64,000 nt of DNA from Savitreella phatthalungensis. Taxonomy: Eukaryota. Position 1 is the first letter of the stretch; each line of letters begins with the position of its first letter. The notes under the pieces are model-generated. The model had not been told where the DNA came from, did not search any database, and saw nothing but the letters and a program-made list of their open reading frames with translations. The position numbers and the translations under genes are program-made. The stretch is from assembly GCA_051599415.1 (NCBI GenBank), contig AP039692.1, forward strand, positions 248,001-312,000, given 5' to 3'. This document shows positions 48,070-54,464 of this stretch, one piece after another.

Positions 48070-49163
48070 GTGGATGCAGCTTGGATAACTTTTTTGGCTG
48101 AATCGTGTATCCGAATATTGTTACGGTGTATTTTGAGATGATCACGGGTTGGATGTGAGAGCCAAGGATTCAGTGTGCGAGGGAAACTGGACAGTATGAA
48201 TCCAGGGCTACAGCTGCAGCCTGTTGATGGCTGTGCAGGCGGGTGCAGCGGGTCGTTGTGGATGCACCTGGAAAGAGAGATAGACGGTATAGTCGATGCT
48301 ACAGGCGTGTGCGTGCACGTGTATCAGTCAATCAGCATGTAACCCTGGATAAGAATGCTCGAGGGGCGAGAAACAAGATGCTCAGCAGGGGCATTCGCCA
48401 GAATACCTTCCTACGACAGGACAGGGGGCTCAATTGACTTATAGGGACATGTACCGGGAGTGTTGTAGGTCATCTATGAAGTGCTTGAAAGGCACGGCTG
48501 TATCACCGAACACGGACGCCAAGCTTGTTGGCTGGACAAACCTTCATGTTTGACCTGTCCGAGAGAGGACAGGTCTTCGGCGGAAGGAAGCTTCACTCAA
48601 ACCCGTGTTCCTTGTGATTGGGTCAATTGCCTTGCAGGACGATAAACCTACACCAGGAAAAGCAGACCTTCATGCTCCAGTGTTTGGATGGCCCCTAGAG
48701 CGGAACTCCTTTCCTTGCTCTTGCACGAGATTGATTGATCTGCGGTCTTGAGCACCGTGAATGCTGGCTGTCCGTGGAGGATGAAATTTGAGTTACCCCC
48801 TTCCCGTTTCCGGTCAACATTCCTACCACATTCACAAAGCAAAGGGATTTCCTCGGCTTTCCAATCTAATCAGTCTGAAGTTTAAATCTCAAATTGGACT
48901 GGAAATCGATGTTTGCCTTTAATAATCCTCTAAATTCATTCTCGATTGGCAGATCCGATGATCCTTGGTTTGGACCAACAATTTTGACCGTGATCAGAAT
49001 ACAGAATACCACACGCTTGCGCTGATCTGTCGACCTCAGCTCGATCTAGGTCGGTCTTCCGCAGTGTTCTGCTTCCTCAGAATCTGATCCTGCCTGCGAC
49101 CGAACTTCGCCGGGTGTAACGGCAAGTAGAACAAGGGATGGACAGGAATGCAGGTTGCCAACG

Positions 49164-49211
49164 CAAGTGCCAGTCGTACAAGTGCTAGTCGTCCAAGTGC
49201 CAGTCGTACAA
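49164..49211. repeat. 15-bp minisatellite, 3 copies (CAAGTGCYAGTCGTM)
   Basis: caagtgccagtcgta caagtgctagtcgtc caagtgccagtcgta caa. Confidence 0.9.
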
Positions 49212-49535
49212 TGAAGCTGAGCGACTGTACTCGAGCGTAGAATCTCTTGCTCTGCCATTTCTGCTATGGCTGACTGCTGCTGCGGCGGTACGTGTGAGCC
49301 AGTGATAGCTTTTCGCTTTGTGATACGGCCGAATGCAGGAAATCGTCGCAGCATGTCGCAAGCAGATCACGTGTGACCTGAATATCCTGCTCCTGCACGT
49401 GCATCATCTGCGCGATGCGGATTCTTTCGGTCGATCATGATCAAATAGATGCACGAGATACACAGGACAATATACACCAGTGCTCCAACGTCCTACATCG
49501 ACCACGATCTTCTGTAACGCAGTGATACGTCCGTC

Positions 49536-49838
49536 ATGAGCTCAGAAGAGTCACCGATCGTCGCCTTGTACCGCAAGCCCACATGGCTTGGGCTAGCGCG
49601 ATCGAGTGTGATCAATTTAGTCCTGCCCTTCCTCAACGGCGTCTTTCTCGGATTTGGCGAAATATTCGCTCACGAAGTAGCTTTTCTGCTCGGCTGGCGA
49701 GGTGCGAATGTCAAGCCAGGGCACAGAATGGTTGGACCAGGTGTCAAGCTGGAATCACAGAGGCTGGGAGGTATGACGCAGGATCTCGAGCAGGTGAACC
49801 GAAAGGATGGCCACTACGTCCTCCCAGGTCTCGAGTGA
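49536..49838 (+). CDS. MIM1: Mitochondrial import protein Mim1/Tom13
   Basis: INLVLPFLNGVFLGFGEIFAHE signature. Confidence 0.92.
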   Translation: MSSEESPIVALYRKPTWLGLARSSVINLVLPFLNGVFLGFGEIFAHEVAFLLGWRGANVKPGHRMVGPGVKLESQRLGGMTQDLEQVNRKDGHYVLPGLE

Positions 49839-50916
49839 TGCATCTGCACTCGATGGACGAGCGGCGGCTGCTGATTGATCGGACTCATATCAATCTGATG
49901 CGATCACGGTGAAGGATGCAGGCTATCCCGCACATAGGTCGCGATCGATAGAACTCAAGGTGCGCTACCCTGTGTCTAAATCTTAAGACTGGAATCAGCG
50001 CGACCTGAATGCCGCGCTTCATTCAGCTTCCGCTTCGTCCTTTTATATTGTACATATATGCATGTCCATTCGACCCCATTCCGCACGGTTCCTGTGGAGT
50101 AACAAATCCGCTCGTGATGAAGTGGTGAGGAATAAGTTTTTCAAGCCAAATCTGGTCGATCTGGCAGGCCTTCCGGGTTGTGCTGCACGGCTCGAGGAGA
50201 CTCGTCTGCGGCTGTAGGAACTTTGCTTTCGACTGCGTCTCGAGAAGAACTCAGTGGCGGACGTCGTTGCCAAGCTCGTGTATAAACTCCGGACTTTCCC
50301 GTAGTTTTCGGTTCTGTCACCATTCAGTCGAGGAGGGCACAATTGTCGAGACGAAGGAGAACCAGACCAGTTGTCAGAAGTGATTCGTTTCTTGTTGCGA
50401 GTGGGTTGTGTCCCTGCAAATGCTTGGTCTCCGCGACCTAGCTCTCGTATCACCCGAACGTCATGTGTACTGCGTCAAACTGTCAACTATATATGCAGAT
50501 TAGCTCCTCAGCTGCAGAATCCACCATTTTAGCAGATAATGCATCGGTAGCGTCACAGTATCACTTACATTACGCTATGAAAGGTCGCACAGCATACCCG
50601 TGTATGCTATGCTGCAGAAGAACGACAACACAACACGCATGTCGACATCGGTGTCCCGGTTTCCTCGATATGAATGACCACCCTGACACACGAGCATCAG
50701 CCCCATTTACACGTGCCACACTTTTATAAATTCTCCGCAATTGCCATTAATAGAATCACTCGCCAAATTGCAACACATTCGTCATACACCTGCCGACGAC
50801 ACTTCACGACACCAGCCATCATCCGTTTGCAAAAGACATGCAAGCTGAACACCGTATACCGTTCTGGCAATCTCAATGCGCTCGAGACTACGAGCACGCG
50901 TCATGACGAAGTCAGC

Positions 50917-52076
50917 TCGGCTGTCATTAAGCACCAGATGCTCGGCTACCACTAAATAACACGTCGTCGCGTCAAATCTTCAACAGGACGTCCAAAATCC
51001 CCTCGGCTATACTCTTCGTCTGACATTCTCGACCAGAGAATTGCGCGTCTTTTCCAACGAAATATCTCGGCTAGCATGTCGGCTGATTTGTCAACCCAAA
51101 CATCTCGGCTGTTGATGGCACCCTCGGCAAGCCGTCGTACCCTTCTACGTCCCCGAATGACGTCTGAGCATCGCTCGTCAGCCCAGAAAGTGCAGTCGGA
51201 GGGCATCGATACCCGTATGCTACTACGTCTTGTGCAAACACCTCCGACATTGCCCTCGCGATCGCCGCGTACAAGTGAGTATACTAACTGATACGCATGG
51301 GAGGTTAGCCGAGCGACGATGTGAATGACAACGGTGGGTTGCCAAGGCGATGACGCACTGTTGTGGGTGCTCGGCAATCTACTCCACGGCCCGCAACGGC
51401 AATTGCGAACACAGACGCGCCGTTGACAACGGCAATTATCGGCTAAGTCGACGGCAACGGCTGCAGCACGACGGTTGTCGAAAGCATTATCGGCTGGCTC
51501 AATAATAACGGCTGGTTGCTATGTGTGAGGGCTTTTACGTCATTGCAAAAGGGCGTAGATTGCTCGAATTGGGGAATCGATCGACAGGGGAATGCCTCAA
51601 TCGTCGGAGAATTGAAATCACAAGATCGTCACATGTCCGTTGCAAAAGGTTTCCCAATTAGGAAATTCCATGTAATTGGGGTTAACATCGGCTCCACAAC
51701 AGGCACGACCACACTCCGATACCATTGACATCAAAGGTTCACAAAGTGTCCGACATGGCCTAGGATATCGAGGAGAAGGCGTACAGGCTCAAGACTAGGC
51801 TCATTCGACTCCGATAGAGCTCTGCTACACGATGAAATGGCATGTGGAAACGACAAATCAATGCGAACAGACCTTGTTCGTTTTGACAATGTGGCATCCC
51901 CGGCGCGATCACAATTCGAGTTCGTCGTTTTCTAAACTACAATCACCAATCGGTTCCCCACTCGTCACGGAAGGCTAACTCACTGAGACACAACAGACTA
52001 GCCATCTTTTACCTCAATGTCAAAACCATTGAAGAATTATCGGCTACCTTCGGCTACAACGATGGCATTTTCGGCT
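50917..52076 (+). promoter_or_regulatory. Clustered TCGGCT and (C/T)AACGGC motif array upstream of the orphan gene
   Basis: 13 TCGGCT/AGCCGA copies and 5 YAACGGC/GCCGTTG copies counted by eye. Confidence 0.55.
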
Positions 52077-52143
52077 AGGTCCTGGACCCCCGTCGAAAGT
52101 GATAAAAGGAAGCTCAATCCCATTCTTGTTCACCATCTTCTTT

Positions 52144-53289
52144 GTAAGAACCCCTTCAACACTCACTGCTCGTCCGGCCTCGCTGGCGATGACAGAGGGA
52201 TCTTCAATGGCGCGCCAGAGTTTTCCTCAACGGATCTCTCTTGGTAGTCCAGGGCAATTCTCTTAACGAGAGTCCTGGCCGCGTCTAGTAAGATTTTCCC
52301 TCATGGTCATCGTCGGCGGGTCGGGTCGATCGGGCTCGCCTGGCCTAGCCAGCGATGCCAGGGTTTCATCACCCAGTGAGGAGCGATCCGAGCGCCGTCG
52401 TGCGCCTACCCTTTACCGGGTTGGCGTGCGGCTGGTCAGCTTGGACTCTGTCTCGTAACGAGACAGAGTCCAGGCGAGCTCGACGCTTCTCACCGTGATG
52501 GAACAATCCTGGTGTCGCTGGTGAACGGCTGGGACGATGTCCCGACCGGCCCCTTGCCGGCGGCGTTTGAGCGCGTGGGCCAAGTCTTCTTGGTCCACGT
52601 ACCGTTGATCCTCCTATGTTCCCTTCTCGAGGGGAACACGGAGGTCGCGGTGCGTGGATTCATTGAGGCTGGTCTGCGACTCAGGCGTCGTCGCGTCAAG
52701 GGGATAAAACCGGTCGGTGTACTCGTCCCAGCCTAGCCGGTGATGCTACGAGGTAGGTGTCGTCGGTCCACCCAGACCTCGCTCATTATTGAGCGTGTGT
52801 CTGGTTCGGACCGGCGTACCGTAAGTCCTCTCAAGCATCACCGGTGAAGAGGTCAGGTCAAGGCTCGTTCGGACCGAGCTGGCGGAGACGCCAGAGGTTG
52901 TCCTATGCCTTCCCATGGCCGCATTAGCGGTTCTTGGGAGGTGTGGGCGCCTCTGGCGTCTCCGTCGGCGAAGCGTCCGTGCGAGCCCGAGGGCCCACGC
53001 GAGCGCCACCGAGGTTGTCCTCGAGAGGTCATGCCAGTCTTTCAAGACTCTGGTATGCTTCTCGTGGACGCCTCGACGGCGCAAGCGTGGCGTCCGCTCG
53101 AGCCCGAGAGACCCTTGCCTGTCGACGCGTGGGGCGTTCGTACCCCTTCGTTCCTTCAACTCTCTGCCCGTTTACCGGGTCGAGAGACGGAGGGACGAAG
53201 GCGGAGCGTGTCGCCCCGACCGCGTCGTCAGCGAGGCTGCGTCTTGCAGAGCGAGTTCCAGGTTCGAGCACGTCAACTAACATGTATAG
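52144..53289 (+). other. Candidate ~1.15-kb 5'-UTR spliceosomal intron filled with a large branched RNA structure
   Basis: GTAAGA donor at 52144 (alternatives at 52288, 52821, 53053); ACTAAC at 53276-81; TAG at 53287-89; many long stems inside. Confidence 0.65.
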
Positions 53290-53393
53290 TGATACTACTT
53301 CGTTCGTCCTACAACCGGCCGAACAATCTAGCTCTCTGACACTCTACAACTCTTTCGGAACTTCTCCAATTTTCAACTTTCCACTTTAACATC

Positions 53394-54464
53394 ATGGCTT
53401 TCTCTGCTATCAAGTCCATCGCCCTCTTCGGCAACAAGAACTCCAAGAACGCCGCCTCAATTAAGGCTTCCAAGCAGTCCAAGAACGCCTTCTCGGCCTC
53501 TTCTGCTCCTGCTCAGCCCAAGGCGACCAAGTGCACCTCTGACAAGATCAAGGCCACTGTGTCAAAGCTCTCATGCGGTTCGCTCAAGTTCAAGACCAAG
53601 GCCGAGAAGGCTGCTAAGAAGGCTGCAAAGGAGGCTGAGGCCAAGCTCGCCCAGAATCTGGCCGACCGCAACATGTACTTGGTGCCTTACTCTGAGCGTC
53701 TCCTTGGTCCTTCCATCTACGACGCCCCGATCGAGGCTGAAGAGGAGTTTTGCCCTTTCCCCGACGTCGAGACGATGGACGACCTGCTGCGTCATGTCCA
53801 GTTCTACGCTGCTGCTCGCAAGCCTGAATACGCTGATGCCGAGTGCATTCAGTCGCAGGCTGGTGACATCAGCTACGTGCACTCCGAGGCTGGCGAGATC
53901 AGCTGCACCTACTCAGCCTCTATCTACTCGGAGATTCCTACCGCTGACCAGGTCGACGAGGACACCTCAATCCTCGCCGAGACCCTGGGTGCACCTGCCT
54001 CGGGCACAGCTACCCCTACTCCTCAGACTGTCGCCACTCCCTTCGTGGCTGACAGTGCGGACAGCTGGTCAATCGAGCGTCCTTCCGAGATGTTCGCTGA
54101 CATGCTGTCCTCAAAGCTCGAGACCGTCGAGGAGGAGTGCGAGGCTCCTGCAGCCGCTGAGCCCGAGACCACGCCTGCCCCAAAGATTTCCAGCATGTGC
54201 TCAAAGCTGTTCGGCGCCACTACCCCGGACGTCGTGAACACGAACGTGGCTGAGGAGACTGAGGCCTTCTCCTACTCGCTCTTCCCCGAGCGCCGCACCT
54301 GGCACGTGGAGGCAGAGGCTCGTCGTCAGGCCCTCACCCTCGGCGGTCAGGAAAAGCCCACCTACCAGGTCTTCAACTACGACTCGTTCGACGGCAAGGT
54401 CACTGACGTCATCTTCACCTGGGGAAACACTTCCCAAAACCGTCAGGTCGTCAACCAGGCTTAA
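53394..54464 (+). CDS. Orphan 356-aa protein with Lys/Ala-rich N-terminus and acidic middle; no recognised domain
   Basis: Long ORF with strong C/T third-position and AAG/GAG codon bias; good start context (acatcATGG). Confidence 0.85.
   Translation: MAFSAIKSIALFGNKNSKNAASIKASKQSKNAFSASSAPAQPKATKCTSDKIKATVSKLSCGSLKFKTKAEKAAKKAAKEAEAKLAQNLADRNMYLVPYSERLLGPSIYDAPIEAEEEFCPFPDVETMDDLLRHVQFYAAARKPEYADAECIQSQAGDISYVHSEAGEISCTYSASIYSEIPTADQVDEDTSILAETLGAPASGTATPTPQTVATPFVADSADSWSIERPSEMFADMLSSKLETVEEECEAPAAAEPETTPAPKISSMCSKLFGATTPDVVNTNVAEETEAFSYSLFPERRTWHVEAEARRQALTLGGQEKPTYQVFNYDSFDGKVTDVIFTWGNTSQNRQVVNQA

Follow-up and report, generated by a model that had tools for sequence, protein, structure and literature searches.

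The segment 52144-53289 on the + strand of the window (the entire 64-kb stretch of DNA analysed) is probably a spliceosomal 5′-UTR intron in the leader of an orphan gene, and it appears to host a structured RNA whose fold has been under selection. The host organism is a Taphrinales leaf-surface yeast, whose relatives combine compact genomes (about 13 Mb) with introns about 80 nt long. The candidate intron, whose transcription and splicing we infer from the sequence, is 1,146 nt long with a G+C content of 61.8% compared with 44-60% across the window, and its minimum free energy (MFE) fold contains 446 bp in which 78% of the bases are paired.

The folding results are all thermodynamic predictions, evaluated against dinucleotide shuffles (n = 30). 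On the + strand 52144-53289 gives an MFE of -732.6 kcal/mol compared with -482.8 ± 7.4 kcal/mol for the shuffles (z -33.6), with a mean probability of 0.91 for the pairs of the MFE fold, and the minus strand gives a z of -16.7, so that folding stronger than that of shuffled sequence, on which the initial annotation had staked its claim, is seen on both strands. The + strand fold is 134 kcal/mol stronger than the minus-strand fold, the corresponding gap in shuffles being about 38 kcal/mol. The 200-nt flanks are unstructured (z -0.6 and -0.7), and in a 300-nt sliding scan the element is the sole such outlier of the 64-kb window. The character of the imperfect pairs is equally strand-specific: the + strand fold contains 56 G-U pairs and only three A·C juxtapositions (0 of 10 single mismatches and 3 of 31 juxtaposed bases in symmetric internal loops), and the minus-strand fold contains 12 G-U pairs and 15 A·C mismatches. 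The orientation of the G-U pairs is 29:27, so neither arm is favoured. The ratio of 56 G-U to 3 A·C argues that the fold is maintained in the + strand RNA, and together with the strand gap in folding energy it supports the prediction of a selected RNA fold made from the sequence at the outset. The initial observation is confirmed and proves stronger than first described.

Seven sub-domains make up the predicted fold, with + strand z values from -4.0 to -13.8 and each weaker on the minus strand. The first, D0 (52195-52302; z -4.0 on the + and -2.4 on the minus strand), is a branched 5′ hairpin domain that holds a patch conserved in a paralogous locus (patch A, 52213-52235). D1 (52348-52522; -125.3 kcal/mol, z -13.2 and -9.5, 10 G-U pairs) is a branched rod that includes a 17-bp hairpin with a UAA loop (52439-55/52459-75), which had been noted from the sequence and is recovered both in the MFE fold and as an inverted repeat; it is closed by a stem initially described as 14 bp (52349-62/52508-21) that extends to 15 bp in the MFE fold (52348-62/52508-22). 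D2 (52527-52733; -143.2 kcal/mol, z -13.8 and -7.9, 13 G-U pairs) is a 207-nt rod of 89 bp, in which the proposed 11-bp stem 52527-37/52723-33 is present and whose 5′ arm contains a second paralogue-conserved patch (patch B, 52552-52572). D3 (52736-52845; z -9.5 on the + strand) is a rod in which an internal loop leaves GUAAGU (52821-52826) unpaired, the 11-bp stem originally drawn at 52737-47/52834-44 gaining one pair here (52736-47/52834-45, 12 bp). The rod D4 (52862-52987; z -12.2 and -7.6, 9 G-U pairs) carries a 21-bp helix (52878-98/52949-69) that had been reported as 20 bp (52878-97/52950-69) and was also detected as an inverted repeat; this helix and the 17-bp hairpin of D1 are of the lengths (21 and 17 bp) of the longest perfect helices in the fold. 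D5 (52989-53095; z -8.5 and -5.8) is a further rod, and D6 (53131-53217; z -6.5 and -4.9) is a hairpin with a UUUAC loop whose upper stem, given before as 53145-56/53190-201, forms 13 bp in the MFE fold (53145-57/53189-201).

The local rods are joined by long-range helices, and here the fold departs from the initial annotation. Its long-range stem 52215-24/53044-53 is complementary on paper and has an ensemble pair probability of 0.0. Of the rod that it placed at 53096-53269 the upper stem stands, but the lower part is mostly taken up by three long-range helices: 52330-52337/53100-53107, the most certain long-range contact (P 0.97-1.0), and, with P of about 0.2-0.6, 52311-21/53117-27 and a 17-bp closing stem between 52175-52191 and 53223-53239 (0.24-0.59 for this stem). 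Imposing the local rod leaves the whole intron at -721.9 rather than -732.6 kcal/mol, so that the rod and the 17-bp closing stem compete with a difference of 10.7 kcal/mol. U1 binding and branch-point binding would both require the outermost pairs of the prediction (52144-52/53261-69) to melt.

The geometry of the 17-bp stem is that of a zipper stem, which in Saccharomyces cerevisiae is defined by linkers of at least 10 nt and at least 20 nt and a total of 42-85 nt (PMC12350175). Here the stem begins 31 nt from the donor and ends 36 nt 5′ of ACTAAC, a total of 67 nt. The predicted fold thus places the donor near the branch point, which supports the view, already suggested as one function of the structure, that it may act as a scaffold drawing the splice sites together. 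The likeness to the zipper-stem introns of S. cerevisiae (RPS17B, RPL7B; PMC12350175; 10.1101/2025.03.14.643126) lies in the stem distances and in splice signals that are left accessible. However, the long introns of yeast are mostly 400-500 nt and only partly structured, in contrast to 1,146 nt and 78% paired bases here, and the present element has seven separately stabilized rods that a zipper role does not need, with a closing stem that is a prediction.

The signals expected of a U2-type intron, namely a GT donor, a branch-point motif and a YAG acceptor, are present in the right order and spacing. The 5′ splice site GTAAGA (52144-52149), the G and U of which pair weakly with 53268-69 (P 0.82), abuts a putative short first exon ending in ...CTTCTTT; this exon and the only TATA-like motif, GATAAAAG (about 52103-52111), some 35-40 nt 5′ of the donor and a possible promoter, together span 52103-52143. 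At the other end, a single-stranded 20-nt tail (53270-53289) contains ACTAAC (53276-81, branch A at 53280) and the 3′ splice site TAG (53287-89), with 9 nt from the branch A to the last intron base. ACTAAC occurs only eight times in the window, counting both strands. The borders of the fold coincide with these signals: the donor G is the first paired base, and the last paired base is 53269, 6 nt before ACTAAC, as had been claimed, with 53270-89 unpaired up to the end of the TAG. The structured block is therefore bracketed exactly by GTAAGA and ACTAAC-N5-TAG, for which we estimate a joint chance of about 3e-6 from motif frequencies in the window. Downstream, the putative second exon (53290-53393) provides a leader of 104 nt that contains no ATG, and none is found in 52100-52143, compared with 13 in the intron. 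Some features could nevertheless be read differently. GTAAGA is not the best donor, as the perfect and unpaired GUAAGU at 52821-26 lies inside the element and could be a real or an alternative donor. A promoter at the TATA-like motif would imply either a very short first exon or a transcription start within the element, and the core promoter could instead be the CT-rich block at 53290-53390, which would count against an intron.

The putative host gene (P0001, CDS 53394-54464 on the + strand) encodes a lineage-restricted protein of 356 aa without a known family. It has no Pfam family, a word-indexed protein search returned the query alone, none of 238 pattern matches in metagenome contigs was confirmed, and the best score in the ESM Atlas, 0.79, lies under the lead threshold. 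The element itself has seven stop-free frames of 96-163 aa without a Pfam match at E<=0.1, and a tRNA scan of the window found none.

Comparative evidence amounts to about 290 nt from near-identical strains together with two short stretches of a paralogous locus, and within its limits it points to constraint. In a near relative, a 156-nt contig spans 52170-52325 with a single difference, C>T at 52280, which converts a G-C pair to G-U; the run that holds it shows 7 differences in 498 nt of coding sequence, and all five listed differences between the near relative and the P0001 CDS fall at third codon positions. Two leaf-metagenome runs contribute only short near-identical contigs covering small shares of the stretch; in one of these runs a contig spans 53159-53385 without a difference, while 51257-51456 shows 11 differences and a 9-nt deletion. 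Among 1.84 billion protein representatives the only relative of P0001 is P0122 (BFZ55474.1), encoded on another contig of the same organism (635,393 nt) and alignable with P0001 at its ends only (41% and 60% identity). This contig is collinear with the locus at patch A (23 nt, one difference), patch B (21 nt, one difference) and 54332-425, and its loose end after 54425 translates to SASAENQIVH, matching the C-terminal region of P0122; by arithmetic the two short matches lie about 1.34 and 0.45 kb 5′ of the P0122 start codon. Judged from these alignments, the traces of the element beside the paralogue support its age. A 23-nt hairpin core has no match in metagenome contigs or in viral contigs.

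On this basis we propose that the interior of about 1,065 nt is a selected + strand fold of seven imperfect rods carried on long-range helices. During synthesis of the pre-mRNA the rods would fold, and the three closing helices (52330-37/53100-07, 52311-21/53117-27 and 52175-91/53223-39) would loop the interior out, so that about 67 nt of chain would separate the donor from the branch point, a distance close to the usual intron length of related fungi. Both the branch point and TAG would remain in the free 20-nt tail, and the spliceosome would excise the entire block. Its removal would be required for expression, since retention would leave 13 AUGs and a structure of -733 kcal/mol before the start codon. 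The excised RNA would be compact and almost fully paired with a 9-nt tail past the branch; it is likely to be long-lived and to carry a function that keeps the inner rods paired, a function we propose because approximation of the splice sites cannot explain selection on every inner helix. A tentative possibility is that this is an intron-hosted functional RNA of a new kind, a multi-rod RNA of about 1.1 kb that is released by splicing, has long been kept in a two-gene family and acts in trans. It would then serve, for example, as a polycistronic small-RNA precursor, possibly directed against the host plant or competitors, or, resistant to nucleases, as a scaffold or decoy that engages double-strand-RNA-binding proteins, and the orphan 'host' gene would mainly give it a promoter and splice sites.

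That the interior supplies small RNAs in particular, with its rods as Dicer-type hairpin precursors in an intron-borne cluster like mirtron or hairpin-RNA loci, seems unlikely; this reading overlaps with our preferred explanation and differs only by naming the trans function. The architecture would suit it, since the six rods and branched rods D1-D6, 87-207 nt long, hold imperfect duplexes of 35-89 bp and end in small A/U-rich loops, and the longest perfect helices measure 21 and 17 bp. Of the patches shared with the paralogue, which measure 21 and 23 nt, one falls entirely within a rod arm, but this length is near the shortest piece that the mapping reports and may simply mark a detection floor. 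Other genes of the window show no match to any arm, nor, at a likeness of at least 80%, do the 12.7 Mb of contigs, and so no endogenous target is visible. In Taphrina deformans most RNAi genes are reported present, but the dcr1 homologue is without a helicase domain (PMC3648899).

Quite unlikely is an independent structured ncRNA gene of about 1.1 kb without any intron, lying on the same strand 5′ of the orphan gene, with splice-like signals that are used for end formation or not at all. Fission-yeast telomerase RNA, to which the element is similar in size, takes its 3′ end from a first-step splicing cut; the strand-specific fold does imply an RNA, and the TATA-like motif stands just upstream of the first structured base. 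However, the donor is at the extreme 5′ end and the branch point and acceptor at the extreme 3′ end, which is the layout of a whole intron rather than of a 3′-end cut, and the 104-nt gap before the start codon is ATG-free and leader-like. A related element 5′ of the paralogue is also unexpected for a single-copy housekeeping RNA. A telomerase template is absent: the TTAGGG complement was sought in all six permutations and occurs in none of them on the + strand, with the caveat that this motif is that of T. deformans (PMC3648899) and may not be that of the host yeast. Over 51500-54000 no Rfam family was found on either strand at E<=1, including any ribozyme or riboswitch, so the initially suggested sensor and self-cleavage functions found no support; the whole window contains nothing at the gathering score. 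Group I and group II introns and the hammerhead, HDV-like, twister and other ribozymes were thus considered and rejected for want of a covariance-model match in Rfam.

We also consider it quite improbable that the block is an introner-like element (ILE), or a retro- or DNA-transposed structured element, that landed in or created an intron and whose fold serves its own spread or tolerated removal. Fungal ILEs are longer than regular introns and have canonical signals, compensatory mutations and predicted structures that are stable (PMC3609843), and the present block is likewise longer than regular introns, with a lower folding energy. Its G+C content, above that of the window, gives it a compositionally foreign look, and there is a related element near a second gene. 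Yet no second copy of at least 80% likeness exists in 12.7 Mb of the organism's contigs (5,767 records), where only the source-like contig covers the stretch and the sole other record shares nothing beyond the 21-23-nt patches; with one full copy the block is not a multi-copy introner. The assembly passes through the element unbroken, and elsewhere in the window blastn gives only the self match and chance matches of up to 22 nt. The second element lies upstream of a paralogous gene, which fits segmental duplication rather than transposition. No direct repeat flanks the block (flank-to-flank alignment 27 compared with a null of 23 ± 3.3, giving neither a target-site duplication nor flank homology) and its ends lack a terminal inverted repeat, the closing repeats being sub-terminal and imperfect as DNA. 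The length of ILEs is only about double that of ordinary introns (PMC3609843), but the block is some 15 times as long as the average T. deformans intron of 78 nt (PMC3648899). The two systems share extra length, canonical donor, branch point and acceptor, and a stable structure that is apparently selected, but ILEs of Dothideomycetes and other fungi are spread over unrelated genes in tens to hundreds of nearly identical copies (PMC3609843), whereas the only kin of this element sits beside a paralogous gene.

A purely DNA-level feature without an RNA role, be it decayed palindromes, a foldback/MITE transposon or a cruciform spacer, is extremely improbable: inverted repeats are visible in the DNA (five pairs in a repeat search; three inverted and one direct internal matches in a sensitive self-BLAST), but just three arms are recognizable at this level, with 66-92% identity, against 78% pairing in the RNA, neutral palindrome decay predicts equal G·T and A·C on either strand rather than the excess observed, the energy gap between strands far exceeds that of shuffles, and RIP footprints were not found in T. 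deformans (PMC3648899).

As a structured intron the element is best compared with other spliceosomal and rod-like RNAs. [quoted passage not shown] The known cases, stationary-phase linear introns of yeast and the sisRNAs and lariat-derived circles of animals, persist and act beyond the host gene (PMC11585973). The internally symmetrical stwintrons and sister introns of Hypoxylaceae are likewise fungal and spliceosomal, and their symmetry may allow double-stranded intron RNA; they are, as the element is here, without flanking target-site duplications (PMC8469720). In contrast to their 45-55-nt terminal inverted repeats, nested internal intron and many sister copies, the present element has multiple internal rods and sub-terminal closing stems and has not proliferated. 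Viroid-like and retrozyme RNAs and hairpin small-RNA precursors are of similar size, with rod-like or branched, near-fully paired folds rich in G-U, but the present element is a chromosomal DNA segment bounded by splice signals, and it gave no match to hammerhead, hairpin, HDV-like or other ribozyme families. The literature searched describes no comparable intron from Taphrinales.

A selected, spliced-out RNA in the leader of P0001 would bear on several questions. In a lineage of compact genomes a 1.1-kb intron is seemingly tolerated through near-complete self-folding, and would represent an extreme natural test of helices that join splice sites. In every inner rod wobble pairs outnumber A·C mismatches in a strand-specific way, which argues for selection on the excised RNA itself; if this is true, a large structured RNA would join the short list of functional fungal intron products. 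A long, structured intron at a single locus could also be the starting material from which ILEs originate. With a culturable yeast, one locus and one paralogue, the system is a tractable one in which to pursue these possibilities.

The + strand of the element at 52144–53289 (1,146 nt), a candidate 5′-UTR intron upstream of the orphan gene P0001 (356 aa), has a predicted minimum free energy (MFE) of −732.6 kcal/mol, compared with −482.8 ± 7.4 for 30 dinucleotide-preserving shuffles (z −33.6); for the reverse complement the values are −598.6 and −444.4 ± 9.2 (z −16.7), and the element thus folds better than shuffles on both strands, a comparison that the initial annotation had proposed. The + strand fold has 446 pairs, which involve 78% of the bases and have a mean probability of 0.91. 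Each of its seven sub-domains (D0–D6) is significant when excised and folded alone (z −4.0 to −13.8) and all seven are weaker on the minus strand, while the 200-nt flanks are ordinary (z −0.6 and −0.7) and a 300-nt sliding scan of the 64-kb window revealed no comparable fold elsewhere. Six helices of the initial annotation recur in the MFE fold to within one base pair. Its long-range stem 52215–24/53044–53 has an ensemble probability of zero, and its 3′ rod stands only in part: long-range helices engage most of the base of this rod, and the version first drawn is 10.7 kcal/mol costlier. The hairpin tips at 52409–52421 (CCCTTTACCGGGT) and 53167–53180 (CCCGTTTACCGGGT) are nearly identical in sequence, with loops UUUACC and UUUAC, and could represent a shared protein-binding loop or the trace of a module duplication. 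A direct repeat of 29 nt (79% identity) at 52968–52996 and 53085–53113, in the 3′ arms of the neighbouring sub-domains D4 (52862–52987) and D5 (52989–53095), hints that rods were multiplied by local duplication.

The composition of the + strand fold points to constraint at the level of RNA. It contains 288 G-C, 102 A-U and 56 G-U pairs, the last in both orientations (29:27), while A·C accounts for 0 of 10 single-base mismatches and for 3 of the 31 facing bases in symmetric internal loops; in the minus-strand fold the balance is inverted, A·C mismatches (15) outnumbering G-U pairs (12). Unselected decay of a DNA palindrome produces G·T and A·C equally frequently, and a ratio of 56 to 3 where equality is expected disfavours such an origin. 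At the DNA level just three inverted repeats, of 66–92% identity, are recognisable in the element. Repeat-induced point mutation is also an unlikely source, since Taphrina deformans showed no footprints of it and the same paper states that other Taphrinomycotina lack it (PMC3648899). From this single sequence we conclude that selection has probably maintained pairing of the + strand transcript in every rod, which agrees with the selected RNA fold with + strand G-U pairs put forward in the initial annotation.

The Rfam search suggested there gave no family match in the element at E ≤ 1, which leaves group I and II introns, ribozymes, snRNA, RNase P/MRP and telomerase RNA without a match, and the + strand lacks a template for TTAGGG. 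None of the stop-free frames inside the element matches a Pfam family. Introner-like elements are defined by many near-identical copies (PMC3609843) and are far shorter, whereas the present element occupies a single locus among the contigs searched here. It has no target-site duplication. A multi-copy introner would give many records and a broken assembly, but among all 5,767 contigs (12.7 Mb) of a set from the same organism, searched at a likeness of at least 80% and not independent, being possibly the source of the window's DNA, one contig covers the stretch unbroken and just one other record touches it. We infer that this set amounts to about one genome's worth, by comparison with the 13.3 Mb given for T. 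deformans (PMC3648899).

The second record matches collinearly at 52213–35 (23 nt, 1 difference), 52552–72 (21 nt, 1 difference) and 54332–425 (94 nt, 17 differences), and its loose end after 54425 translates as SASAENQIVH, matching the C-terminal region of P0122. This NCBI ‘hypothetical protein’ of Savitreella phatthalungensis (Taphrinales; 438 aa) is the sole relative of P0001 among 1.84 billion representatives and aligns with it in two places only, close to the N-terminus (41% identity) and at the C-terminal end (60%). Relative to the P0122 start codon, the protein alignment places the short matches ~1.34 and 0.45 kb upstream, on the assumption that the P0122 coding sequence has no intron; at P0001 the distances are 1.18 and 0.84 kb. 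Our reading is an old gene duplication in which a long upstream element would have been taken along, with overall length roughly kept in both copies and a few patches unchanged. The two proteins form an apparently species-restricted family, with no Pfam and no Atlas match, whose members have in common a basic segment near the N-terminus and a C-terminal domain of 57 residues with the pattern ...TLGGQxKPxYQVFxYDSFxGKxTDVxFxWG...

The fold is bracketed by intron signals. Pairing starts at the G of GTAAGA (52144) and ends at 53269; the final 20 nt, ACGUCAACUAACAUGUAUAG, are unpaired and contain ACTAAC (53276–81) and TAG (53287–89), which bears out the initial annotation's placing of the fold's end 6 nt before ACTAAC. 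ACTAAC occurs 8 times in the window on the two strands together and donor-like hexamers about once per 1,000 positions, and from these motif frequencies the chance of a structured block so bracketed is estimated at ~3e-6. The element holds 13 ATGs, with none in the 104 nt between 53290 and the start codon at 53394 and none in 52100–52143. The P0001 coding sequence (53394–54464) is real, with 5 of 5 listed differences in near-relative contigs at third codon positions. Counting against an intron beginning at 52144 are the sole TATA-like motif, which is very close to the donor, and a perfect donor-like GUAAGU at 52821–26, a site that is unpaired where almost all of the fold's interior is paired and that with the same branch point would give a 469-nt intron. 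This site, or a second GTAAGA at 52291–52296, could act as an alternative 5′ splice site or as a decoy. The frame of an upstream ATG (52062–52076) starts MAFSA, the first five residues of P0001, with differences at third codon positions only; the flank-to-flank nucleotide alignment of the two regions scores within chance (27 versus 23 ± 3.3). If the transcript starts upstream, this ATG would open a reading frame crossing the intron.

A 17-bp helix (52175–91/53223–39) closes the interior together with 52311–21/53117–27 and 52330–37/53100–07. It begins 31 nt past the donor and stops 36 nt before ACTAAC, a total of 67 nt that fits the distances given for yeast zipper stems (≥10 nt, ≥20 nt, total 42–85 nt; PMC12350175). 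With the interior looped out, the ‘effective’ intron would approach the mean lengths of 78 nt in T. deformans and 81 nt in fission yeast (PMC3648899, Table 1). Only a short exterior path separates donor and branch point in both the best and the alternative fold (21 and 57 elements). Pair probability is 0.97–1.0 for 52330–37/53100–07 but ~0.2–0.6 for the other two helices, owing to a competing local 3′ rod. The scaffold envisaged in the initial annotation thus gains a predicted zipper geometry, while a closing stem at about even odds in the ensemble counts against it.

Near relatives hint that the element changes more slowly than neutral sequence (rough Poisson P ~0.05 and ~0.01 for the two sources below), although these values rest on small counts, and the contigs from metagenomes possibly derive from different strains. 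A contig of a near relative (X3) has 1 difference in 156 nt over 52170–52325, a C>T change at 52280 that turns a G-C pair into G-U, while the coding sequence differs at 7 of 498 nt in the same run. A contig from a leaf metagenome (X4) has 0 differences over 53159–53385, and a second X4 contig differs at 11 positions and lacks 9 nt in the spacer at 51257–51456. Within this variable stretch lies a 34-nt intron-like string (GTGAGT-TACTAAC-...-TAG, 51275–51308), probably without function. The ORF-poor spacer (48170–52060, ~4 kb; longest frame at most 188 aa, stop to stop) follows an alpha-amylase-like gene (minus strand, end 48169) and is unusually long given the compactness of the genome. Upstream of P0001, a cluster of TCGGCTR at 50917–52077 (1.16 kb) holds 12 of the 31 window matches (17.9 ± 4.6 in shuffles), 11 of the 12 on the + strand, and may reflect a promoter site for a transcription factor that occurs repeatedly. 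The window comes from a fungus and contains few introns; a Blm10/PSME4-like protein (1,778 aa) and a USP7-like protein (1,174 aa) each occupy one uninterrupted open frame, the closest named relatives of the latter being from Pneumocystis (51% identity) and Saitoella (50%). The genus Savitreella was described from pineapple leaves (PMC8877625).

In the working model that we somewhat favour, the element would be a spliceosomal intron in the 5′ leader, packed by co-transcriptional folding of ~1,065 nt into rods, with the closing helices keeping donor and branch point at an ordinary distance and leaving branch point and acceptor free. Its removal would be needed before P0001 is translated. Acting as a zipper can account for the closing helices but not for selection on ~400 inner base pairs, so the excised RNA probably has a role of its own; compact, double-stranded and with a 9-nt tail after the branch, it is probably long-lived. 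A source of small RNAs is the leading guess for this role, itself a doubtful one, and a protein scaffold or decoy is another option. Precedents exist for structured introns, zipper stems, introner-like elements and stable intron RNAs alike. In the literature searched, however, we found no account of a 1.1-kb intron at a single locus that is paired over nearly its whole length and constrained in a strand-specific way, in a Taphrinales genome of compact size. If the excised product is stable and active, the element could represent a new class of intron-hosted RNA.
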